A stretch of DNA of 64,000 nt from positions 279 through 64,278 of the forward strand of contig JAUVZJ010000004.1 in the NCBI GenBank assembly GCA_030602585.1. Reading direction: 5' to 3'. The stretch comes from Candidatus Methanophagales archaeon. GTDB lineage: Archaea; Halobacteriota; Syntropharchaeia; Alkanophagales; Methanospirareceae. The notes under the pieces are model-generated. The model saw only the letters and a list, made by a program, of their open reading frames with translations, was not told where the DNA came from and did not search any database. This document shows positions 7,802 to 28,805 of the stretch, piece by piece (the first letter of the stretch is position 1; every line of letters starts with the position of its first letter). A program made the translations under genes and the position numbers.

Positions 7802-8314
7802 ATGAGCGAAGTTATGCGAGAAGTGTTAGATTCATTAGCGAAAATGGGGAAGCAATGGGACTTAGGGGAATCAGTGGGACGTGTCTGGGGCTTCTTACTG
7901 TTCAAGTCCTGTCCCGTAACGCAGAAGGAGATAGAAGAAGGCACGGGCTACAGCAGGGGATTGATTAGCCGAAGTTTGAAGGAATTAAAAAGGGGACCCA
8001 TGATTGAAGTAAAGAGAGAGGGAAGAGAAATCCGTTATTCTGTTAATACCTCTTTAACAGAGAGTTTTAATGAACTGTTGAAGCGTTTTCTCGCTGAGAA
8101 CATCGAACCGATGATTGAATTGCTATCCACGAGTCAGGATAAAATCGACGATGCAAAAGTGAGGGATACTTTTCTCGCACTCTTACACGAATACAAGAAA
8201 TTAAACCTCGCTGTTCTCCTGTTCTCCAGAATAATGAACGATATAAATACGATGCCCGTAGGGGTAGAGAACATTGAAGAAGTGGCAAAGAACATTTCGA
8301 TGAAGATAAGATAA
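7802..8314 (+). CDS. winged-helix transcriptional regulator (GbsR/MarR-like)
   Basis: N-terminal wHTH (VTQKEIEEGTGYSRGLISRSLKEL); lies upstream of the surface-protein/MMPL locus; paralogue at 52806..53246. Confidence 0.5.
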   Translation: MSEVMREVLDSLAKMGKQWDLGESVGRVWGFLLFKSCPVTQKEIEEGTGYSRGLISRSLKELKRGPMIEVKREGREIRYSVNTSLTESFNELLKRFLAENIEPMIELLSTSQDKIDDAKVRDTFLALLHEYKKLNLAVLLFSRIMNDINTMPVGVENIEEVAKNISMKIR

Positions 8315-8337
8315 TGATATAAAGGAGGTGATAAGAA

Positions 8338-9639
8338 ATGAGTAAAAATGGTAAAGGAAGAAAGTTGGTTTCGCTATGCGTTCTCGGCATGGTGCTTTTT
8401 ATGCTGTTTTTGCTTGTGCCGTTTACGTCAGTGGTTCCGGTAGATGCGATTTTCTCTTCTGTTACTATAACGGATGTAACGCCTACGGAGTTGCATCCCG
8501 GAGATACAAGAGAGGTGACGGTGACGGTGAAAAACAATGGCGGCAGGGACGCAAGAGATATTAATTTGGCGTTTCAAGGCACAGAAAACGTATCGCTCAT
8601 AGGACCAACTGTTGTGCACATAAATACGCTAAATTCGTGGTGCTGGAAGGAATTGGAAATCACAGTGCACGTGAAAGAAGAAGCGACTAATGGTGTTTAT
8701 TCTATCCCAGTGACCTGTTCGTGGAGGGAATACTATTTTAACTCTACACTGAGCCGTTATGTGGCTACTGAGATAACAGGACAGCAATTAGGTATTTCTT
8801 TCAACGTAATAGGAAAGGGAGTGATAAATATAGGTGATGTAAGCACTGACCCTACGGACATAAGACCTGGAGATGAGGACGTTGAAATAAGAGTAGATAT
8901 AGAGAATAGTGGCGAAGCAGCGGCGAAGGATGTAGAAGCAAAATTACTTTGCAATGATAAATTCAAACCTTCATGGTCTGGAACGGACCGTTCATACATG
9001 GGCAGGTTGAATTCTGGCGATTCGAAAGAGGCGATATTCCACATTGACATCGCTGAGGGCATAGAAGCAAATACATACGGCATTCCGCTGCGGATAAGAT
9101 ATAAAGATACGAAGGGCGAAGAATACGAGGTAATGCGGGAGATAAACATATTGGTGGAGCCGAAACCGGAATTTGAAGTCGTTTCTTTTCGCACTGAGCC
9201 CGCGGACATAAGCGCTGGCGATTACGTTACATTATATGTGCGAATAAAGAATGTGGGGTCAGAAGAGGCGGAATCTATTAGCGTAAGGTCAACGGGAGAA
9301 GCGGAAGTGCCTTTTGATTTCGATGTGAAAAGCGATTACGTAGGCAATTTGAAACCGGATGCAGAATGGACTGCGGTTCTAAGATTCGATGTGGATACGG
9401 ATGCCTCGCTAAAAACATACCAGCAGGGTTTGGAGATAAGATGTATCGGAGACCGCGAGTTAGGCGATTATAATGTGTATCTTTTCGATATGATGATTCC
9501 GATAAGCGTGTCATCAAGCAGCACAGGAGGTATTTCGGTTCCCGGATTTGAGGCGTTATTCTCACTCCTCGCACTTATTTTCGGTTTTGCCATTATCGGG
9601 CAGCGGAGGACTAAAAAAGCGCACGACAAGAAAGGATAG
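8338..9639 (+). CDS. cell-surface protein with CARDB/NEW3-like beta-sandwich repeats and PGF-CTERM sorting signal
   Basis: N-terminal signal/TM; repeated Ig-like segments (DIRPGDEDVEI...; ADISAGDYVTLYVRIKN); C-terminus SVPGFEALFSLLALIFGFAIIGQRRTKK matches the PGF-CTERM archaeosortase signal. Confidence 0.65.
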   Translation: MSKNGKGRKLVSLCVLGMVLFMLFLLVPFTSVVPVDAIFSSVTITDVTPTELHPGDTREVTVTVKNNGGRDARDINLAFQGTENVSLIGPTVVHINTLNSWCWKELEITVHVKEEATNGVYSIPVTCSWREYYFNSTLSRYVATEITGQQLGISFNVIGKGVINIGDVSTDPTDIRPGDEDVEIRVDIENSGEAAAKDVEAKLLCNDKFKPSWSGTDRSYMGRLNSGDSKEAIFHIDIAEGIEANTYGIPLRIRYKDTKGEEYEVMREINILVEPKPEFEVVSFRTEPADISAGDYVTLYVRIKNVGSEEAESISVRSTGEAEVPFDFDVKSDYVGNLKPDAEWTAVLRFDVDTDASLKTYQQGLEIRCIGDRELGDYNVYLFDMMIPISVSSSSTGGISVPGFEALFSLLALIFGFAIIGQRRTKKAHDKKG

Positions 9640-9645
9640 AACGGA

Positions 9646-10794
9646 ATGGGGCTAAAAGAAAAGATAAGTATAGAAAGGGCATTAGAACGGTTGGCTTCTT
9701 TCCAATACCTGCATTATAAGAAGATAATCGTAGCGGCACTGATTTTAACGGTGTTTTTAGGCTATGGTGCAACCGAACTGCAATTTCAAGGTGATATAGC
9801 GAAGGAGATGCCGCAGGATTTGCCTGTTTTCGTTTTACAAGATAAAATAGCGAGTAAGTTCAAGGGAGCAGAGACAATGATTATAGCCGTTTGTTTGAAC
9901 GAAGAAACGGGTGCGAAAAACATACCACGGGATATAAGAGACCCAAGGGTAATAGCATCAGTGGTTGAATTGCACGAACGGCTTGAAGCGGAATCAGCAA
10001 TTGAAAGTGTTCAGTCGGTGGCTCCCCTTTTTTCGCAAAGTGTCCCCGAAGATATAGAAGGTGTGAAGAGAGTTTTAGATTCTGTTCCTGGTGCAGAGCG
10101 TCTTTTCAACCGTGATTTTAGCATTATGCTGGTCTATACTTCCACTACGGCTGGATTGAGTGAAGAGAAGGTGGAAGAAGTAGCAAATATAATACAAAAG
10201 GACGTTGATTCAATTACAAAGCCCGCAGGTGTGGAATATAAAATAACGGGTATGGCGCCGATGATAATTGAGTTATTAAAGTTGATGCGTGAGGATATGG
10301 TATTCACTACACTTTTGGCGGCGGTTATCATATTCGTGTTTTTGGCAGTGCTGGAGCGCTCGTTCACAAAAGGTTTTCTCGTTTTCCTTCCGCTGATTTT
10401 CGCAATTACATGGACTTTCGGAACAATGGGATTTCTCGAAATACCGGTATCCATTAGCACGGTTATGGTGGGTGCGGTCATTATCGGCTTAGGTGTCGAA
10501 TATGGGATATTCATGGTATCGCGGTATTATGAAGAACGAGAGAGATATGCCCCGGTAGAATCGTTAAAAATTGCGGTCTCTAATATAGGAGCATCAACAT
10601 TTGGCTCCGCAGCAACGACAACTGCAGCATTCTTTGCTTTAACGCTTTCCGTAATGCCAATGATTCAGCACTTAGGGCAGACGCTTGCTTTAGGTATAAT
10701 CTTCTGCTGGCTCGCCGCCGCGGTAGTAAATCCCTGTTTTATCGTGTTTGAGGAGCAATTGCAGGGAAAGCGGAGATTAAAAAATGCGGGATAA
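9646..10794 (+). CDS. MMPL/RND-superfamily exporter, N-terminal half (COG1033-like)
   Basis: One N-terminal TM, a soluble loop, then a five-TM bundle (FVFLAVLERSFTKGFLVFLPL...); typical half of an MMPL transporter. Confidence 0.6.
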   Translation: MGLKEKISIERALERLASFQYLHYKKIIVAALILTVFLGYGATELQFQGDIAKEMPQDLPVFVLQDKIASKFKGAETMIIAVCLNEETGAKNIPRDIRDPRVIASVVELHERLEAESAIESVQSVAPLFSQSVPEDIEGVKRVLDSVPGAERLFNRDFSIMLVYTSTTAGLSEEKVEEVANIIQKDVDSITKPAGVEYKITGMAPMIIELLKLMREDMVFTTLLAAVIIFVFLAVLERSFTKGFLVFLPLIFAITWTFGTMGFLEIPVSISTVMVGAVIIGLGVEYGIFMVSRYYEERERYAPVESLKIAVSNIGASTFGSAATTTAAFFALTLSVMPMIQHLGQTLALGIIFCWLAAAVVNPCFIVFEEQLQGKRRLKNAG

Positions 10795-11950
10795 GCGGAG
10801 GGAATTGGGAAAAGTACCTTTGGAGAAGTATGCGAAGTTCGTATCGCATCACGCTCTCATTGTTTTGGCTATATTTCTTATTTTCACCATTTTCATGGGT
10901 TATCAAGCCTCTTCGATGGAAACAGTGGGGACATCGCAGAAGGCATGGCTTCCAGAGGATATAGAAGTGATAAAGACGTTTAATCTAATAGCAGACCAAT
11001 TTGCGGGTAGCTTTGCTACTTCAACGATTGCAGTGCAAACAGAGCCAAGATATGCAAAATCCGATGAGATACGCGATGTCCGCGACCCGGAGGTGTTAAG
11101 ATACGTTGATTTGCTTTCTGAACGAGCAAAGCTTATTTATGGTGTAGTGAGTGTAAAAAGTGCTGCGGATGTTGTAAAAGAAGCGAATGGCGGTAGAATA
11201 CCGGGTTCTTTGCGTAGCGTGAAGTCACTGTTGGAGCATAACGAACTGGCAGAGCAGGCGATACGCAATTACATCAGCGATGATTATACGATGACTGTGG
11301 TGAGGTTGAACATATTGGAGGATGCGGATGAAGAGGAGGTGGTTGAAGAACTGAGAGAGGTGATAAATATAAAGAAACCGAGTGGTGTATCGGTAGAAAT
11401 TAGCGGCGACCCGATGATACATGTAGCGATGCAAGAGCTCGCAGAGGAAACGATGCAGCGGACCTCTTTCGTCAGCTTCGCTTTAATCATTCTCATTCTC
11501 ATAATCGTATTTGCCTCGATTAAATATGGGCTTATTCCGCTGTTAACGATTGTTTTTGGTATTATATGGGCGATTGGCACGCTTGTTTTGGCTGACTTCG
11601 AAATAACGCCACAGACATCGGGTGTGATGGCGATGATAATGGGCATTGGGATAGATTTTGGCATTCAGGTAACGAAGAGGTTTAGATATGAACTGAGAAC
11701 GCAAAAACGTGAGGATGCAATGGTGAACACGCTCAGCAGCGTGTTCTATCCGATGAGCATAACGACGTTAGCGGCAGTGATTGGATTTAAATGCCTTTCA
11801 CTCGGTAAACTGCCAGTAATGGCAGATATGGGAACGATGATGGCGACAGGTGTGGTGTTTTGTATGGTTGCAGCACTGACAGTGGTGCCGGCGATTCTGG
11901 TGTTGTTCGAGAGGGGGAAAACGTTATATGAAATAAAAAGTAATTCTTAG
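10784..11950 (+). CDS. MMPL/RND-superfamily exporter, C-terminal half
   Basis: Same half-architecture as the upstream gene; 11-nt overlap in a different frame; has its own ATG. Confidence 0.6.
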   Translation: MRDKRRELGKVPLEKYAKFVSHHALIVLAIFLIFTIFMGYQASSMETVGTSQKAWLPEDIEVIKTFNLIADQFAGSFATSTIAVQTEPRYAKSDEIRDVRDPEVLRYVDLLSERAKLIYGVVSVKSAADVVKEANGGRIPGSLRSVKSLLEHNELAEQAIRNYISDDYTMTVVRLNILEDADEEEVVEELREVINIKKPSGVSVEISGDPMIHVAMQELAEETMQRTSFVSFALIILILIIVFASIKYGLIPLLTIVFGIIWAIGTLVLADFEITPQTSGVMAMIMGIGIDFGIQVTKRFRYELRTQKREDAMVNTLSSVFYPMSITTLAAVIGFKCLSLGKLPVMADMGTMMATGVVFCMVAALTVVPAILVLFERGKTLYEIKSNS

Positions 11951-21732: not shown

Positions 21733-23388
21733 CTATTTGATTGTCCTTAATTCCACCTCACACTCCGAGCAGAACCGCTCATCCGCTTGCACTTCCTTAC
21801 CACAGTTTGGGCATTTCCTCGCCGAAGTAATTTCTGACCGCTGAACAGCACTGTCCTCAATATTAACACTTGTTGCACTTTCACCATGTCCACCAAAACT
21901 CGTTCTCTGCACAACCGAATCAATAATATTAATCACCTGCTTGCTCTCGATAATTCCAATCTCCTTTGCCGATTGAACCGACCCCACAAGATGTCGTATG
22001 CTGTTTCCAATCTCGTTTAAGAACCCGTGCAGACCGTAAGGCTTATCCGAATATGCGCGGAGTGCGACTTGAGTAAAGTTATTATAAGGCTGAATGACCG
22101 CAGTGAGCAGATAATACGCCTTTTCTCCTATTGATTCACCTGCAAGGTTAACTATTTTTGCGGAGTCAATTTCATGTTCGCTGATAACATAAAGCCGATG
22201 CGCACATGCTTCTTTGACAAATTCTGTAATTTCATTGACGCTGATTCCACTGAACGATAAACCTTCCTGAATATGTTCGCATGTATTTGCGAGTTCTGCG
22301 AATTCGCCTTCTCGCATCGCTTTTTCCTTGAGGAATGGGCAAACGCAATGCACCTCTTTCGGTCGCATCTGCACCGCTTGCTTTTCTCCTGTGTGGTCTT
22401 TGTAGGTTATGGTTGCATCTATTTTTTCGTTGTGGATGCAGCCAAGCGGTGTAAGTATGTATTCCGCAGTTCGCTCTCCATGAGGGTCAATGTTGGCGAG
22501 ACTTTGAACCACATTGTCGTTAAAGGAGAAGAGTGTTTTTGGATAGGCGAGTATGGTTTCTACATCCATTATCGCAGAGTCGGTGTTGTTGATGATGCGG
22601 ATACCGAATCGGAGGTCGTTGTTTTGTAATACTTCGTAGCCTCGTTTTATCTCTACCTTTGCCAGCGTAACTTCTTCCGTAGGGATGGATGTGGAAGGAC
22701 CTGTTCTGGCGGTGACCGTTCCAATTTCTATGGACTTGTTATAGGTTTCGTCTTCCAAGTCCTCGAATGACAATTTAAAAGTTCCAATGTTTATCTGCCC
22801 TGCAACAGATGGATTGAGTTTAAACGGCACCTCTCTATCAGAACCGGGATCAATTTTTTCTATTTTAACTTCGTTTTTACTGATGCAATCAATTTCAACT
22901 GGATGTAGCACAGAAATTACAATATTTTTTGCTACAACCATTCCTGTATTCCGTAATTTCAGCGAGACCACATTATCCTCGCCCACCTGTAAGAATGCAG
23001 GCACTGATGGCTCTGCTATCAGCTCAGGTTCTGGTGGATACACAACAAACTCCTCACGTAGTGATTTTGAGTAATTAGCGCAGGTTACTTCAACAGATAC
23101 ACTTTGTTTTCCTGCTTTGAGTGCTTTGATTGGAATATCAAGTTCTGTGGATGACTGCTTTGGAATTGTGTTTATCGTTGGCTCCGTGAGTATTTCGATG
23201 CCGTCTGATGCCGTTACAGCGATTGAAATTGGGTCTGCGTTTGCGTAGCCGTAGCCTGTGTTTTTTACATGTAGCGTTAATTCGCCAGATTCGAGTGCAT
23301 TCAGGGTCGGGATGGTCATGAAAAGCGTGAGGTTTGGAGCTCCTTTGCGATGGCTGGTTATTACTTTATGGGCTATGCCTATGAACAT
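21733..23388 (-). CDS. surface/secreted multi-domain protein with beta-sandwich repeats and C-terminal zinc ribbon
   Basis: 551 aa; repeated Ig-like segments; C-terminal CPNCGKEVQADERFCSECEVEL zinc ribbon; the upstream in-frame extension encodes a TM helix but has no canonical start. Confidence 0.5.
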   Translation of the reverse strand: MFIGIAHKVITSHRKGAPNLTLFMTIPTLNALESGELTLHVKNTGYGYANADPISIAVTASDGIEILTEPTINTIPKQSSTELDIPIKALKAGKQSVSVEVTCANYSKSLREEFVVYPPEPELIAEPSVPAFLQVGEDNVVSLKLRNTGMVVAKNIVISVLHPVEIDCISKNEVKIEKIDPGSDREVPFKLNPSVAGQINIGTFKLSFEDLEDETYNKSIEIGTVTARTGPSTSIPTEEVTLAKVEIKRGYEVLQNNDLRFGIRIINNTDSAIMDVETILAYPKTLFSFNDNVVQSLANIDPHGERTAEYILTPLGCIHNEKIDATITYKDHTGEKQAVQMRPKEVHCVCPFLKEKAMREGEFAELANTCEHIQEGLSFSGISVNEITEFVKEACAHRLYVISEHEIDSAKIVNLAGESIGEKAYYLLTAVIQPYNNFTQVALRAYSDKPYGLHGFLNEIGNSIRHLVGSVQSAKEIGIIESKQVINIIDSVVQRTSFGGHGESATSVNIEDSAVQRSEITSARKCPNCGKEVQADERFCSECEVELRTIK

Positions 23389-23453: not shown

Positions 23454-24527
23454 TTATTCTTGCGTTTTCAGCACTTGTTTTTGCCTGGTTTGCGAATTGA
23501 CCGCCTCTTGATACTGTTTGTTTTCAAGTGCTGTTTTTGCCTGGTTCAAGAGATTTTGAGCCTCTGCTGTATCTGCTCCGATTTTGTTTGCAGAGGCGAT
23601 TTCGGATTGTGCTTTCGAAATTGCATTCGTGATTGTAGATAGTAGTTCAATCTTTGATTTAGTAGCGAACGCATACACACAATAATCCGGCGAGCAAACA
23701 TACACCACACCGTCTGCCACCGCAGGTGACCTGACAGGTGACCTGACAGTGCCACCCGTTTTGTATTTCCATTTCTCTGCACCACTATCGGCATCTAACG
23801 CATACATATAATCATAACCCGAGCCAACAACTACACCGCCTGCTACCACTGGTGACGAACTGACCCAATCATCCTTTTTGTATTTCCACTTCTCTTTACC
23901 ACTATCGGCATCTAACGCATACACATAATCACCCGAGCCAACATACACCACACCGTCTGCTACCGCTGGTGACGAACTGAACCAGCCACCCGTTTTGTAT
24001 TTCCATTTCTCTGCACCACTATCGGCATCTAACGCATACACATAACTATCAGCCGAGCCAACATACACCACTCCGTCTGCTACCGCTGGTGACGAATGAA
24101 CAGAATCACCCGTTTCGTATTTCCATTTCTCTTCCCCACTATCGGCATCTAACGCATACACATAATCATCATACGAGCCGACATACACCACTCCGTCTGC
24201 TACCGCAGGTGACGAACTGACACCATCACCAGGTTTGAATTTCCACAATAGTTCCAGCGGCGGTTCAGCTTCACCATCTGCTTGTCCGGTATGTGCGGGG
24301 TCGTGGCGGAACATGGGCCAGTCGGTTGATGTGAGTGTTTTAATTGATGTGGGGGTTGGTGCTGTTAATACAAGGGTTGTTTCGACCTCTTTCTGATACT
24401 GCCCGCCATCCAGTTCCGCAGATGCTGGCATTGTCACTAACGACAGCAATCCAACAACAACCAGTACTACAATAACTATCCCTATTTTTCCTTGTTCGTT
24501 CTTAATTTTTATTTCCATTTTCCTCAT
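23454..24527 (-). CDS. PQQ-repeat beta-propeller protein with N-terminal membrane anchor
   Basis: Six or more repeats of AVADGVVYVGSxDxYVYALDADSGxEKWKYKTG; N-terminal TM; C-terminal coiled coil. Confidence 0.7.
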   Translation of the reverse strand: MRKMEIKIKNEQGKIGIVIVVLVVVGLLSLVTMPASAELDGGQYQKEVETTLVLTAPTPTSIKTLTSTDWPMFRHDPAHTGQADGEAEPPLELLWKFKPGDGVSSSPAVADGVVYVGSYDDYVYALDADSGEEKWKYETGDSVHSSPAVADGVVYVGSADSYVYALDADSGAEKWKYKTGGWFSSSPAVADGVVYVGSGDYVYALDADSGKEKWKYKKDDWVSSSPVVAGGVVVGSGYDYMYALDADSGAEKWKYKTGGTVRSPVRSPAVADGVVYVCSPDYCVYAFATKSKIELLSTITNAISKAQSEIASANKIGADTAEAQNLLNQAKTALENKQYQEAVNSQTRQKQVLKTQE

Positions 24528-24831
24528 GTGAAAATCTATTTCCCTATTTTTAAAGGGACAAACTGATGATAAAAAGTTTAGTATTGTTTCAATTATTATT
24601 ACAAATATAAGCTAAAAAATTTAAAATATTCGAAATTTAATTTCGGAATTGTGATAACTTTATATAGCAGATAGTTCATACCTTAAGTAAAAGATGTGCA
24701 GGCTAATGGATGAGGCGTAAAAAGAATGAATAGGGAAATTTTTGGAGATAAGTGTTTCATACAGAGAGATGTATACAAACCAAGTTTGGATATACAACGT
24801 TATATGAAATTGCCAGTTGGTGGAATGAGAA

Positions 24832-25875
24832 ATGGATATTGAAAGAGCCGTAGAGAAGTATCTAGTTGCGATTAGAAGCGATATTTTCGCAGAATATGAA
24901 AAAGAATTTGCTCAGAAAATTACTTCTGCACTGGCGAAAGGATATCTTCAAAATTCACATGAAACACCTTTGGTTCAAATTGTAGAAGATGTAGTTAACA
25001 ACGTTGATAACTTAAATAGGAAAGATCACTTTGAGTTATCAACAAGATCCATTTTCATTCATGGAAACAAATCACAAGTCAAGTTTGATTGTTACGGACA
25101 GAGCGTGCCATCAATAGAGTTGGGCGACTTAATATTCATTATCTCAGTTGTTTTTGATAATAAGAAATATTTTGAGAAATTCACAATCAATCAATTTAAA
25201 AGGGATAAAAGAAACACCAAAAGCATATCTTGGAGTATAGGCAATAGAAAACAACTTTATTTGTTATCACGATTTCCAACATTCCGAGGAGTGAAAGGTC
25301 TTATCCCAAAGAAGGATTTTAATTTACCGAATTATTCGGGCTGTTTAGGTTCTTATGGATTACTTTACAATCCAGGAGACTTTGCCTTTGTTAGCGCTAC
25401 TGGATTAGATTCCTTTATCGGTCATAAGAAGACTCTGAAAAAGAAAGAGCTCTATCATTTGACTGAAAAGTACCTGTTTCCCTATTTTCCCTATTTTTAT
25501 CCCGATATAGATGAGTTACTTTCTTTGTCATCCGAATTCAAGAGGTATTTGTCATGGAATCTTTTTGGCAATTATCATCGTGCATATAACGTATTTGATT
25601 TTGCACATAAATACCTGAGAGTAGGCATTGGTGAACCTATATTTATGAAAATAGGAATATATAACTCACTAGCCAAAAACTTTCTTCATGAGTTGTTCTC
25701 GGCAGTAAAAATCAAAGCAAGAAGAGAGCGGGATATATTAAAGTTCATAGACGGGTTTTTTAGATATGATTATGCAAGCAGTGAAGGAGAAGGTAGTTTT
25801 AGAGGAAATATAGAATTTGATTTTGAGGGAGGGGGAATAGGGATAATTCATACAATAATAAATCTAGGTGAGTAA
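24832..25875 (+). CDS. island ORF 1: hypothetical protein with PD-(D/E)xK-like nuclease core motif
   Basis: AT-rich 347-aa ORF; segment ELGDLIFIISVVFDNKK fits the hhhD...hhh(D/E)xK pattern; no other recognisable features. Confidence 0.4.
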   Translation: MDIERAVEKYLVAIRSDIFAEYEKEFAQKITSALAKGYLQNSHETPLVQIVEDVVNNVDNLNRKDHFELSTRSIFIHGNKSQVKFDCYGQSVPSIELGDLIFIISVVFDNKKYFEKFTINQFKRDKRNTKSISWSIGNRKQLYLLSRFPTFRGVKGLIPKKDFNLPNYSGCLGSYGLLYNPGDFAFVSATGLDSFIGHKKTLKKKELYHLTEKYLFPYFPYFYPDIDELLSLSSEFKRYLSWNLFGNYHRAYNVFDFAHKYLRVGIGEPIFMKIGIYNSLAKNFLHELFSAVKIKARRERDILKFIDGFFRYDYASSEGEGSFRGNIEFDFEGGGIGIIHTIINLGE

Positions 25876-26025
25876 TGATGGTGACTTTATATAACAAAAT
25901 ATATCTGGCTTTGCGCCTTCGGCACTCCGCCAAAATTTGCTCCGCTATCACTTCACAAACTTCAGATACGCTAGGAACGTTTAGCGAGATTGGGTTAAAC
26001 TTACCAGTAAGAAAGGAGGTTTTAG

Positions 26026-26460
26026 ATGGCAGTAATTAGTGCAACTCTAGATTGGGACGGTGTATGGGTGATAAAGGAGGATGAGATACCTTCTAATATC
26101 CCCGATGAAGAAGGGATTTATATGGTCCACAGTGGAAAACGCTCTGACGAACCCAACAAATGGGTCCCATCATCCTATGAATTGCTGTACATTGGAGAAG
26201 CTGAAGAAGTCCGCTCTAGAATTGCCGGGCACGAAAAGTGGTCATGTTGGAAGCGGAATTGTAAAAACCACATACTTTTGAAAGTGGCCAGATGTAGATT
26301 CGGAACTACAAAAAGGCAAAAGGTTGAGTGTTGCTTGATATACAAGACTAAGCCAACCTGCAATGATGAATGCAAAGACGATTTCCCTCATAAGAATGAC
26401 ACAATCCAGATAACAAATACAGGTATGATATCGCCTTTGAAAGATAACTATACTTGCTAA
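26026..26460 (+). CDS. island ORF 2: GIY-YIG-like nuclease domain protein with Cys-rich tail
   Basis: GIYMV (aa 30-34), LLYIGEA (53-59), VRSRIAGHE (Arg/His/Glu); C-terminal Cys cluster; RBS AGGAGG upstream. Confidence 0.45.
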   Translation: MAVISATLDWDGVWVIKEDEIPSNIPDEEGIYMVHSGKRSDEPNKWVPSSYELLYIGEAEEVRSRIAGHEKWSCWKRNCKNHILLKVARCRFGTTKRQKVECCLIYKTKPTCNDECKDDFPHKNDTIQITNTGMISPLKDNYTC

Positions 26461-26534
26461 GTTGGGGCTAGCAACTTAGCCTAACAGCGTGTATCTAGCT
26501 CAGCTACGCTTCGCCAACATTTAGGATAGATGCT

Positions 26535-27188
26535 ATGGATGAAAATCCGAGAAAATACATTGTAAGTATAAGTATCTCCTCGGTAAATTATACATACAAA
26601 AAATCCGAGGAACTAATGTTTCTAACCCAAAGGTTCCCAGAGCAATCAAATACTTTAGCTGCATGTGCAGTTGTTCTTTTTGCAGCAACTTTGGATCAAG
26701 GCACTTTAACTGTCTTAAAAACACTGATTAACCAATATGCGGCCACTAACTTGATAGATACTGACAGTGTTCCTTTTAGTCGTGTAGTAAAGGAATCATT
26801 AAAGAACCGTATTATGAAACTTCCAAGTATAGTAACAGAAGCAAAGTACTGTCTCAGATCAGATATAAAAGAAGTTGAACATTTATACGCTATAGTAACC
26901 ACTAGGAACAATCTCGTTCACATTCAAGATGATATCCGTTTAATCTATAACCCAGAAGTTAAATATGTTGAAGAAAAGGGGGTGTTTCAAACAGTTATCA
27001 AACACCCGAACCCGTGGAAAGATGTTACTTTGAACAAAGTCAAGCAGTATTACCAATCTTTTAGGACTTATTACAACCAAGTGTTATTTCCTTCATATGA
27101 AATACCCGATTCCAAATTGTTACAAAAGAATAATAAAGAAGAAAAAAATACATACTATCAGATATACTTGAATGCCCTATCAGGGTAA
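26535..27188 (+). CDS. island ORF 3: hypothetical protein with HEPN-like R-N-x3-H motif
   Basis: TTRNNLVH at aa 123-129 matches the Rx4-6H HEPN catalytic motif with a polar residue after Arg. Confidence 0.35.
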   Translation: MDENPRKYIVSISISSVNYTYKKSEELMFLTQRFPEQSNTLAACAVVLFAATLDQGTLTVLKTLINQYAATNLIDTDSVPFSRVVKESLKNRIMKLPSIVTEAKYCLRSDIKEVEHLYAIVTTRNNLVHIQDDIRLIYNPEVKYVEEKGVFQTVIKHPNPWKDVTLNKVKQYYQSFRTYYNQVLFPSYEIPDSKLLQKNNKEEKNTYYQIYLNALSG

Positions 27189-27231: not shown

Positions 27232-27591
27232 ATGTCGTATAACTACACATTTGAGGCTCCACTCGGATTTGAGCCCAATGTTAATCTACACGAGAAGCTA
27301 TCACGGTGCCACGGCTTAAAAGAATACAAGAAGCTATGGAAAGAAGAACTAACACGTAAAGATCAAACTATTCCTTTACTCACCGAGATAGTAGAAAATT
27401 GGAATGAGTTCACTGATGCTTTTAATCTACGGCATACACTTATTCACGGACGGGGGACTTGCTCAAGGAATATGGCAGAAAAGCCTGTCGAAGAAATGCT
27501 TTTGGCAACTGATGCTCTGTATGATTTTGCGCGGTCTCGTGGAAAAAACCTTAATGACCGACTTCCTGTTCGCAGGAAAAAAGCGAATTAG
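27232..27591 (+). CDS. island ORF 4: hypothetical protein with HEPN-like R-H-x3-H motif
   Basis: FNLRHTLIHG at aa 64-73; 119 aa; 43 nt downstream of ORF 3. Confidence 0.35.
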   Translation: MSYNYTFEAPLGFEPNVNLHEKLSRCHGLKEYKKLWKEELTRKDQTIPLLTEIVENWNEFTDAFNLRHTLIHGRGTCSRNMAEKPVEEMLLATDALYDFARSRGKNLNDRLPVRRKKAN

Positions 27592-27690: not shown

Positions 27691-27882
27691 ATGGAAAGCA
27701 GAATAATATTTGATACCAAAAGGCTCATTAAAGAATTAGGTATATCTCAGGAAGAATACAAAGAATTAGAAAAAACCGTTAAAAAAGAATTCCCACAGGA
27801 TGAAATGATGTTTCAGTTACATCTTTTGCGGGCATTAAAATCTATAAGCCATAAGAAAGCTAAGGAAAGAGGAACGTTTTAG
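27691..27882 (+). CDS. small protein, putative antitoxin partner of the downstream PIN protein
   Basis: 63 aa, helical and charged; ends 2 nt before the PIN gene. Confidence 0.35.
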   Translation: MESRIIFDTKRLIKELGISQEEYKELEKTVKKEFPQDEMMFQLHLLRALKSISHKKAKERGTF

Positions 27883-27884
27883 CG

Positions 27885-28340
27885 ATGGTGCGCAGAATTA
27901 TAAAGGTTTATCTGGATACATCGGTGATCAGCGCTTTATTTGACGAAAGAAACGCAGAACGAAAAAACCACACAGAGGAGTTTTGGAGAGAACTTAGAGA
28001 TTATGAGGTTTATGTCTCTACGCTGGTAAATGAGGAACTCGATGCGGCATCTGATGAAATAAGGGCGGAAATGATTGATAAAAATAGAGGGTTTAAAATC
28101 TTAGAAATCACTGATGAGGTGGAACGACTTGCTGAAGAATATCTAAGCAAAGGAATTTTCCCGGAGCGATATAAAGACGATGCTATACATGTTGCTGTGG
28201 CTGTGGCAAATAATATAGATTTCCTCATCAGTTGGAATTTTAGACATTTAGTTAAAGTTAAAACTCGTAGAATGGTTAATTTAATAAATGAGATATTGGG
28301 CTATCCACACATAGAAATCATAGCCCCACCTGAACTCTGA
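27885..28340 (+). CDS. PIN domain (VapC-like) ribonuclease
   Basis: N-terminal VYLDTSVISALFD and DAIHVAVAVANNIDFLISWN acidic PIN motifs; 151 aa. Confidence 0.6.
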   Translation: MVRRIIKVYLDTSVISALFDERNAERKNHTEEFWRELRDYEVYVSTLVNEELDAASDEIRAEMIDKNRGFKILEITDEVERLAEEYLSKGIFPERYKDDAIHVAVAVANNIDFLISWNFRHLVKVKTRRMVNLINEILGYPHIEIIAPPEL

Positions 28341-28535: not shown

Positions 28536-28805
28536 TTATCCCAATTCCGCCCCACAATACGGACAGAATTTCGCATCCGCTTGCACTTCCTTACCACAGT
28601 TTGAACATATCCCTACCGAGCCAATTTCTGTCCGTTGAACGACACTGTCCTCAACATTAACACTTGCTGCACCCGTTCCACCAAAACTCGTTCTCTGCAC
28701 AACCGAATCAATAATATTGATAACCTGCTTGCTCTCGATAATCCCAACTTCCTTTGCCGACTGGACTGAACCCACGAGATGCCGTATGCTATTTGTTGTC
28801 AACAT
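28536..28805 (-). CDS. small zinc-ribbon protein; diverged duplicate of the 3' end of the gene at 21733..23388
   Basis: 89 aa; about 85-90% nucleotide identity to 21757-22020; CSNCGKEVQADAKFCPYCG zinc ribbon; overlaps the DUF368 gene by 17 nt; may be a pseudogene fragment. Confidence 0.4.
   Translation of the reverse strand: MLTTNSIRHLVGSVQSAKEVGIIESKQVINIIDSVVQRTSFGGTGAASVNVEDSVVQRTEIGSVGICSNCGKEVQADAKFCPYCGAELG

Follow-up and report, generated by a model that had tools for sequence, protein, structure and literature searches.

What does the open reading frame at positions 24832–25875 encode, and on what kind of element is it carried? It lies on the + strand, as do the cassette, the codons and the attC-type sites described below, of a 64-kb stretch of DNA from a Methanophagales archaeon (hereafter the window). 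Its 347-aa product belongs to an unannotated family with members in archaea and bacteria. A short peptide within the product had been predicted to form the catalytic core of a PD-(D/E)xK nuclease, the fold of restriction endonucleases. We consider in turn the protein, the DNA that follows its stop codon, and the role that the two together suggest.

Protein family and candidate active site

The family comprises about 275 homologous clusters, every one unnamed. Its archaeal members come from Methanophagales, Bathyarchaeota, Thaumarchaeota, Thermococci and Thermoproteota, and its bacterial members from Planctomycetota, Nitrospinota, Paenibacillus, Thermoflavifilum and others. No homologues were found in IMG/VR viral contigs. 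The 347-aa protein has no match among PDB sequences or in Pfam, NCBIfam, PADLOC and PHROGs; what is new is a family absent from the latter four, which is best described as an unannotated restriction-endonuclease-like variant.

Based on 205 full-length homologues sampled down to ~25% identity, E44, H77, E96, D99, Q121, K123, Q141, P149, G173 and G267 are invariant in 204–205 of the 205 sequences and E268 is nearly invariant. Q121-F-K123 is thus an invariant Q-x-K in the family, and an SGCLGS loop is also conserved. A Cys-His-Asp protease centred on C171 was considered and rejected, as C171 is substituted in several members. A mutual-information contact analysis was uninformative, being dominated by the gap-rich region 213–242. 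When the window copy is compared with that of a second Methanophagales MAG (L007), the core (aa 44–200) differs at 9% of positions and the C-terminal 57 residues at 33%, with an overall dN/dS of 0.85. This C-terminal divergence would fit either a fast-evolving specificity region or relaxation.

Two AlphaFold2 models were obtained, one of the full-length protein from a 40-sequence alignment (pLDDT 85, pTM 0.87) and one of the domain spanning aa 40–215 from 74 sequences (pLDDT 91.5). Strands were assigned by DSSP on both models, and pLDDT is 92–97 across residues 99–124. The order of elements is the same in both: helix 44–57, an insertion at 61–87 that contains three strands, strands 90–96, 100–108 and 111–124, then a short strand 133–135, helix 139–147 and strand 151–156. 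The invariant residues can be placed on this framework. E44 (codon 24961–24963) is at the N-terminus of helix 44–57, a region with pLDDT <50 (residues 42–44) in the full-length model, H77 (25060–25062) is at the end of strand 68–76 (FIHG), and Q141 (25252–25254) is on helix 139–147, after the strand that carries Q-x-K.

The candidate catalytic beta-hairpin occupies aa 99–124 (25126–25203). D99 (25126–25128) starts strand 100–108, and Q121 (25192–25194) and K123 (25198–25200) are near the end of strand 111–124. The turn that joins the two strands is at residues 109–110, outside any strand; D99 is therefore predicted to lie opposite approximately residue 120–121, and this places Q121-x-K123 where the (D/E)xK of a PD-(D/E)xK enzyme should be. 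The motif is ~22 residues downstream of D99 and across the hairpin, with the adjacency read from the hairpin register.

The modeled protein shows an acid at the N-terminus of strand 2, a conserved (D/E/Q)-x-K on the adjacent strand 3 and, in the domain model, a conserved Glu on the first core helix, all features of PD-(D/E)xK enzymes. The Gln at the middle acidic position (D...QxK) is a feature of the Mrr-like subgroup. D99 with Q121-x-K123 is thus compatible with a 'PD-QxK' variant of the PD-(D/E)xK site, which is a documented Mrr-like subgroup (PMC11347163, PMC3874165). E115-K116 was evaluated as an alternative 'ExK' and is not preferred: the two residues are conserved in just 85% and 82% of sequences and are adjacent, so they point to opposite faces of the strand.

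Searches for the fold gave support that is weak but consistent. The full-length model had no usable Foldseek match in PDB or BFVD, and the domain model had no match with E <1e-3. Among the 50 matches listed for the domain model, only chains of the Archaeoglobus fulgidus Holliday junction resolvase Hjc (2wcw, 2wcz) have a TM >0.5 (0.50–0.56, normalised by the target Hjc), and they also have the highest Foldseek probabilities of the 50, up to 0.89. Their E values (0.12–0.5) leave even the best Hjc match below significance.

At the sequence level, phmmer and hmmsearch profile searches of the PDB returned nothing and Mrr_cat (PF04471) gave no Pfam match. Pfam scans of the individual members, with E up to 10, returned scattered noise, including DUF2850 in 9 of 74 members (best E 0.005). 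Profile-profile comparison, suggested along with the original prediction, was negative: hhalign gave a probability of <1% against a profile of Hjc built from Thermococcales and three PDB fragments and 0.1% against an Mrr profile (members at least 70% identical). Both are weak negatives because the profiles are narrow. The absence of a sequence or profile link to PD-(D/E)xK enzymes lowers the claim. An undetectable sequence relationship is common within this superfamily, so the claim is not excluded.

From the predicted arrangement we infer the fold and the catalytic residues. The best-supported reading, to which we give about an even chance, is that the family is a PD-(D/E)xK-like putative nuclease with a site formed by D99, Q121, K123 and E44. 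If this assignment holds, a family of ~275 unannotated clusters joins the restriction-endonuclease superfamily, and E44, D99, Q121 and K123 are its concrete candidate active site.

The strongest competing explanation is that the protein is not a nuclease. The E/H/E/D/Q/K set would then have another chemical role or bind a ligand, the fold would be a novel alpha/beta one, and the likeness to nucleases would be convergent or spurious. In favor of this explanation are the lack of any significant fold or profile match to a nuclease, and an insertion (aa 61–87), an SGCLGS loop and a C-terminal helical region that have no Hjc counterpart. It also agrees with the observation that many integron cassettes, the type of element described below, encode unrelated small enzymes (PMC9668308). 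However, a Glu on the helix, an Asp at the strand start and QxK on the facing strand make up the exact PD-QxK signature, Hjc is alone in exceeding a TM of 0.5 among the matches listed, and the defence-gene neighborhood suits a nuclease. We regard the non-nuclease explanation as a real but minority possibility.

The attC site and the gene cassette

Directly after the stop codon, approximately 110 nt of DNA are conserved across phyla. In the window this element (25876–25985) is recognized by a covariance model, R1, with 67.6 bits and E 6e-12, the match spanning 25876–26000. It can be read as an integron attC site with an R'' box ending in ..TATAAC (to 25895), an L'' box ATATCTG (25901–25907), a CCAAAAT box (25930–25936), an L' box CAGATAC (25963–25969) and an R' box G|TTTAGC (25979–25985). 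Such a 3' imperfect palindrome, with R''(..AAC), L'', L' and R'(GTT..) within 57–141 nt, is a feature of integron cassettes. Over 62 sites the AAC core is present in 52 and the GTT core in 49, canonical GCCTAAC / GTTAGGC variants included; the R'' box is mostly GTATAAC or ATATAAC, compared with the canonical RYYYAAC.

RNAalifold predicted no structure from a MAFFT alignment of the element, and we therefore defined the structure manually and tested it through pair counts. Compensatory pairs occur in GTATCTG ... CAGATAC, GTGTTTGTG ... CACAAACAC, GTGTATGCG ... CGCATACAC and GCATATACG ... CGTATATGC, and an outer pairing, GGCGTATAAC ... GTTATACGCC, encloses the inner ones. Covariation in a 30-sequence alignment is 0.327, compared with 0.184 in shuffles (0 of 500 reach the observed value) and 0.05–0.09 in slid controls. 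For the 62 sites, in an alignment fitted to the model, it is 0.447 versus 0.197 in shuffles (again 0 of 500); 79% of cells are paired, and the L-box pairs of the inner helix changed on both sides in 10 out of 10 cases. The element has no match in Rfam. Folded alone, the window attC is no more stable than its shuffles; it is not thermodynamically distinctive, and its identification rests on comparative evidence.

With E up to 0.01, R1 finds 77 sites in 48 of 110 related loci, all on the strand of the gene. Arrays of 2–5 sites, spaced 221–4128 bp apart, are present in 18 loci and flank unrelated genes as well. A site of this type is found at the stop codon in just 35 of 83 distinct family loci; thus, the family is often, yet not always, carried in this type of cassette. 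The same attC type accompanies homologues in bacterial MAGs (Nitrospinota), in a Thermoflavifilum genome and in archaeal (Thermococci) MAGs. Judged by its R'', L'', L' and R' boxes and by the cassette arrays, the element after the stop codon is an integron-type attC.

The limits of the cassette were determined from pairs of genomes. The window and the L007 locus share 90.5% DNA identity that is limited to window positions 24783–25981, and their flanks are unrelated: the window has a PQQ-repeat protein there, L007 a cation ATPase. On the right, the homology ends (25981) at the R' core G25979|TTTAGC, with G|TT at 25979|25980, and the window cassette is therefore 24800–25979, a 1180-bp integron-type gene cassette. 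It consists of a 5' end (TTATATGAAATTGCC), a short leader that carries a GGTGG ribosome-binding site, the ORF, and the attC up to the G of the R' core. The 5' end GTTATATGAAATTGCC (24799–24814) is an imperfect reverse complement of GGTGACTTTATATAAC (25880–25895), a complementarity that is a requirement of a circular cassette intermediate.

Two further loci, L004 and L006, encode an identical protein between unrelated flanks and have exactly 1222 bp in common. The common block begins at G|TTATACGCC, 32 nt before the ATG. In L004 the block start follows a minimal attI-like GGCGTATAA-AAACGA-G site that adjoins a tyrosine recombinase, and in L006 it is preceded by another attC-like site. G|TT boundaries in differing contexts and same-orientation arrays in related loci are both features of integron cassettes. 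IntI/XerA-like tyrosine recombinases are located upstream in L004, L012, L026 (a Thermococci MAG), L030 and L089. That of L004 scores 236 bits on NF040815, 'tyrosine recombinase/integron integrase' (cut-off 220), and on TIGR02249 the recombinases of the related loci score 210–218 bits (L004, 214), under the cut-off of 265. Based on these sequence comparisons, the gene is carried by a small mobile cassette, which has passed between archaea and bacteria.

The array in the window is reduced. R1 identifies one full attC, and two degenerate sites can be read from the sequence. Immediately upstream of the cassette is a short attC-like palindrome (24745–24805) with L'' GTATACAAAC and L' GTTTGGATATAC, followed by AAC-G|TTATAT; as single-stranded DNA its folding has z = -2.63 and 2 of 200 shuffles fold as well, with a weak R1 score (8.5 bits, E 2.4). 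After the next ORF is a half site (26479–26520) that lacks its 3' half and has R'' GCCTAAC at 26479–26485 and L'' GCGTGTATCTAG at 26487–26498, with an R1 score that is not significant (5.6 bits, E 9.6). A tblastn search of the 64-kb window for an IntI-like gene gave no match with E <1. With no integrase in the window, the array is by its sequence a decayed, CALIN-like remnant with one intact cassette. Integrase-less cassette clusters are the commonest form of archaeal integron (PMC9668308).

Proposed role, rival readings and the flagged motif

The gene neighborhood was compared across 26 loci. Neighbor clustering found no conserved partner gene. The cognate methyltransferase that a type II restriction-modification system would encode beside its nuclease is not conserved, and a methyltransferase is nearby in L006 only. 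Neighbors are frequently defence genes. The immediate ones include SIR2-TPR, GmrSD, type I HsdR, an AAA_15 ATPase and SIR2, and tyrosine recombinases are also nearby. A PIN/VapC pair is present in the window island at 27691–28340. The window also carries TYW1, FlaK and Rio1 genes, which mark it as archaeal.

Given the lack of a conserved methyltransferase and the frequent defence neighbors, a single-gene defence nuclease is the most likely role. The ORF product would be a solitary, probably metal-dependent nuclease whose core resembles the PD-(D/E)xK fold. Its site may combine E44, from the first helix, with D99, which begins a hairpin strand, and with Q121-x-K123 on the facing strand, H77, E96 and Q141 being further invariant residues that probably lie near it. 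The gene belongs to no operon and travels in a 1.18-kb cassette (ORF plus attC) that IntI/Xer-type tyrosine recombinases probably move between arrays, a transfer that appears to cross the divide between archaea and bacteria. In the window, one such cassette is intact in an array that has decayed and lacks an integrase, and toxin-antitoxin-like genes lie beside it. We infer that the substrate is invading DNA and the role defence, either type IV-like or abortive. QxK is typical of modification-dependent enzymes, and by pure conjecture a dependence on modification might let a lone nuclease spare the DNA of its host.

Integron cassettes, including those of archaeal integrons, are rich in toxin-antitoxin and restriction functions (PMC9668308), and cassettes have been described as defence 'biobanks' (bioRxiv 10.1101/2024.07.02.601686). 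Taken as a whole, the explanation that this is a putative PD-QxK defence nuclease on a mobile integron cassette seems to us evenly poised between right and wrong. A more specific version is doubtful and is offered tentatively: an unrecognised family of single-gene PD-QxK nucleases that act as stand-alone anti-virus or anti-plasmid systems, are exchanged between archaea and bacteria on a cassette, and have their specificity set by the helices at aa 291–347. If a stand-alone PD-QxK system were confirmed, it would be among the first functional defence cassettes traced to archaeal integrons. The gene is in any case a clean example of an integron cassette common to archaea and bacteria. It supports the view that integrons carry defence-type cargo across domains, and it marks cassette arrays as a place to seek new archaeal defence genes.

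The protein could instead be the nuclease toxin of an addiction module that stabilises the array, with an antitoxin that has escaped recognition, rather than an anti-virus gene. Among the annotated cassettes of archaeal and bacterial integrons, toxin-antitoxin modules are the most frequent (PMC9668308), and the PIN/VapC pair of the window island is in keeping with this. Across the 26 loci, however, no small partner ORF is conserved beside the gene. The one overlapping candidate, a small ORF at 25875–26039 ('MMVTLYN...'), is the translated R'' box of the attC; its counterpart ends after 7–8 codons in L021 and L023, and L015 has no ATG. We consider the addiction-toxin explanation improbable.

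Less probable again is that the ~110-nt element is a structured RNA partner (guide, antitoxin or regulatory) and not a DNA recombination site. Its strong covariation, its start at the stop codon and the lack of an Rfam family would allow this, and the layout superficially resembles nuclease-plus-RNA modules. However, genes unrelated to this family are flanked by the element too, in arrays of one orientation, it contains the integron cores ..AAC and GTT.., inter-genome homology stops at G|TT, IntI/Xer-like recombinases are at array heads, and just 35 of the 83 family loci have the element at the stop. Neither the reading as a small overlapping ORF (MATAYN...) nor that as an RNA partner was kept in view of the arrays, of the AAC and GTT cores and of boundaries at G|TT, and the RNA-partner reading is very unlikely.

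The preferred reading of a PD-QxK nuclease differs in its residues from the original prediction, which had located the catalytic core in the peptide ELGDLIFIISVVFDNKK (aa 96–112). The peptide is present in the ORF at 25117–25167, with coordinates that had been shifted by 3 nt, and the residue numbers D99, D109 (25156–25158) and K111 (25162–25164) were correct. We defined a strict pattern, D-hhh-x(2-22)-hhh-[DE]-x-K, and a looser version that calls for two hydrophobics. Among the 45 ORFs in the window that reach 200 aa, the strict pattern is found in one, the 347-aa ORF, and it arises in 2.1% of sequences made by shuffling the product; the looser pattern is common, found in 7 of the 45 and in 12% of shuffles. 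The motif string is thus present and mildly unusual, and it is not decisive by itself.

Beyond the string, part of the prediction stands. The region and D99 as the first acid are compatible with all results, the upstream Glu proposed as the helix-1 acid has its counterpart in the invariant E44, and the expected placement of the catalytic residues on adjacent strands is seen in the models for D99, Q121 and K123, though not for D109 and K111. Within the peptide E96 and D99 are invariant, whereas at position 109 the 205 full-length homologues mostly have N (52%), K (17%) or G (8%), and at position 111 just 39% of them have K. The confident model places D99 at a hairpin strand; D109-N110 form the hairpin turn at the end opposite D99, and K111, with which the return strand begins, is separated from D99 by a nine-residue strand. 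D109 and K111 are therefore not members of the triad. A core made of D99 and D109-x-K111 is a local fit to the textbook D...(D/E)xK spacing, but with variable residues in a turn far from D99, and with Q121 and K123 invariant instead, it can be dismissed as highly improbable.

Comparison with known systems

The best structural match of the domain at aa 40–215 is the archaeal Holliday junction resolvase Hjc (2wcw, 2wcz, 1gef). According to the models, the two have in common an element order of alpha, three beta, alpha, beta, as well as a Glu on helix 1, an Asp that starts strand 2 and an xK on strand 3. Hjc, a minimal member of the PD-(D/E)xK enzymes, has an E...D...ExK site (E9, D33, E46 and K48 in Pyrococcus furiosus Hjc, checked against the sequence of 1gef), whereas the window protein has Gln before x-K. 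At 347 aa, compared with ~125 aa for Hjc, the window protein has a hairpin that is ~6 residues longer per strand, and it adds the three-strand insertion and a C-terminal region of ~130 aa. Sequence or profile similarity between the two is not detectable. Hjc is a core genome gene, whereas the window gene is on a mobile cassette.

The D ... Q-x-K site is shared with the Mrr-like PD-QxK nucleases (PMC11347163, PMC3874165), which include Mrr_cat (PF04471), the MspJI and BisI families and the N-terminal nuclease of type ISP enzymes; Escherichia coli Mrr reads GIDGVISLDKLGLEKVYVQAKRW (D...VQAKRW). Mrr-like enzymes function in the absence of a cognate methyltransferase, and many of them serve in defence on their own and depend on modification. 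The window protein differs from them in giving no Mrr_cat match, and no modified-base reader domain (winged helix, SRA) was detected in it.

The carrier of the gene can be compared with integron cassettes, archaeal integrons and CALINs (Ghaly et al. 2022, PMC9668308). The window differs from a typical integron in having one intact attC and no integrase in 64 kb. The single ORF followed by an R''-L''-L'-R' site is common to both, and the related loci share with integrons one-orientation arrays, the G|TT crossover, IntI/Xer-like recombinases at array heads, a distribution across domains, and cargo that is rich in toxin-antitoxin and restriction-type genes.

attC arrangements and a homologue location outside integrons

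Among the loci that carry homologues of the target ORF (the 347-aa putative PD-(D/E)xK-like nuclease gene at window 24832-25875, forward strand), L016 has four attC sites in the same orientation between 8009 and 13736. Here one 2956-bp inter-attC interval holds the target homologue (10001-11083) together with GmrSD, a gene for type IV restriction (8139-9866); it is possibly a two-gene defence cassette, or else an interval from which an intervening attC was lost. The arrangement is also present in L068 and L069. At L006, a second attC-like element (2022-2100) overlaps the first attC immediately on its 3' side and is without an R'' box of its own. This element, which reads GCTATGCGG...CCCAAAT...CTTCGCATAGC...GTTGTGCG, looks like a composite or recombined site; its counterpart in L004, which encodes the identical protein, is interrupted by a DDE transposase fragment.

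In two Bacillota, Paenibacillus sp. YN15 (L019) and a Tepidanaerobacteraceae MAG (L025), the homologue lies between the flagellin and FliD genes, and no attC of the type modeled by R1, the covariance model built for the sites of this family, was found at either homologue. The flagellin-FliD location is a distinct, non-integron context of the family.

Divergence of the target ORF and the reading frame across its stop codon

Between the two closest copies, that of the window and that of L007 (a Methanophagales MAG), dN/dS is 0.85 over the whole ORF. One third of the C-terminal 57 positions (aa 291-347) are changed, compared with 9% in the core (aa 44-200).

A 54-aa ORF on the same strand (window 25875-26039, beginning MMVTLYNKIY) overlaps the target stop codon. 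It is an attC artefact: the R'' box (ATGGCGACGGCGTATAAC), when translated, gives the M-[AV]-T-x-Y-N with which the ORF begins and which is conserved. The frame ends after 7-8 codons in L021 and L023, and its ATG is absent in L015.

Borders and gene content of the low-GC island

The target cassette is part of a low-GC island (~24.6-28.5 kb; GC 0.35-0.39 vs ~0.44) situated between direct repeats of 81-88% identity at window 21749-22006 and 28543-28794, spaced 6.8 kb apart. A zinc-ribbon/adhesin-like gene of 551 aa (21733-23388, reverse strand) has a second copy of its 3' end in an 89-aa remnant ORF (28536-28805, reverse strand), and the island seems to stand where a tandem paralogue once had its 5' portion. 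A 357-aa gene with BamB/AfsK-like matches (23454-24527, reverse strand) contains five tandem repeats of 117-120 nt (23694-24287) coding for PQQ/beta-propeller blades.

The island ORFs described below are on the forward strand. The next cassette-like ORF (144 aa, 26026-26460), which contains the stretch ...LYIGEAEEVRSRIAGH..., may encode a GIY-YIG-type nuclease. Its matches are weak (E 5e-4 to 1e-2) and are to the N-terminal part of UvrC, an endonuclease in PHROG and PDC-S14 in PADLOC. Two unannotated ORFs follow: 26535-27188 has a weak PADLOC match to Cas13-ApeA (HEPN-like; E 1.7e-3), and 27232-27591 begins with ATGTCGTATAAC, similar to an attC R'' box, and has a HEPN-like Rx4H motif in the form RHTLIH. 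At the island's end, a small ORF (27691-27882) directly upstream of a PIN-domain ORF (27885-28340; PF01850, E 8e-9) looks like the partner of the latter in a VapBC-type toxin-antitoxin pair, a typical stabiliser of cassette arrays.
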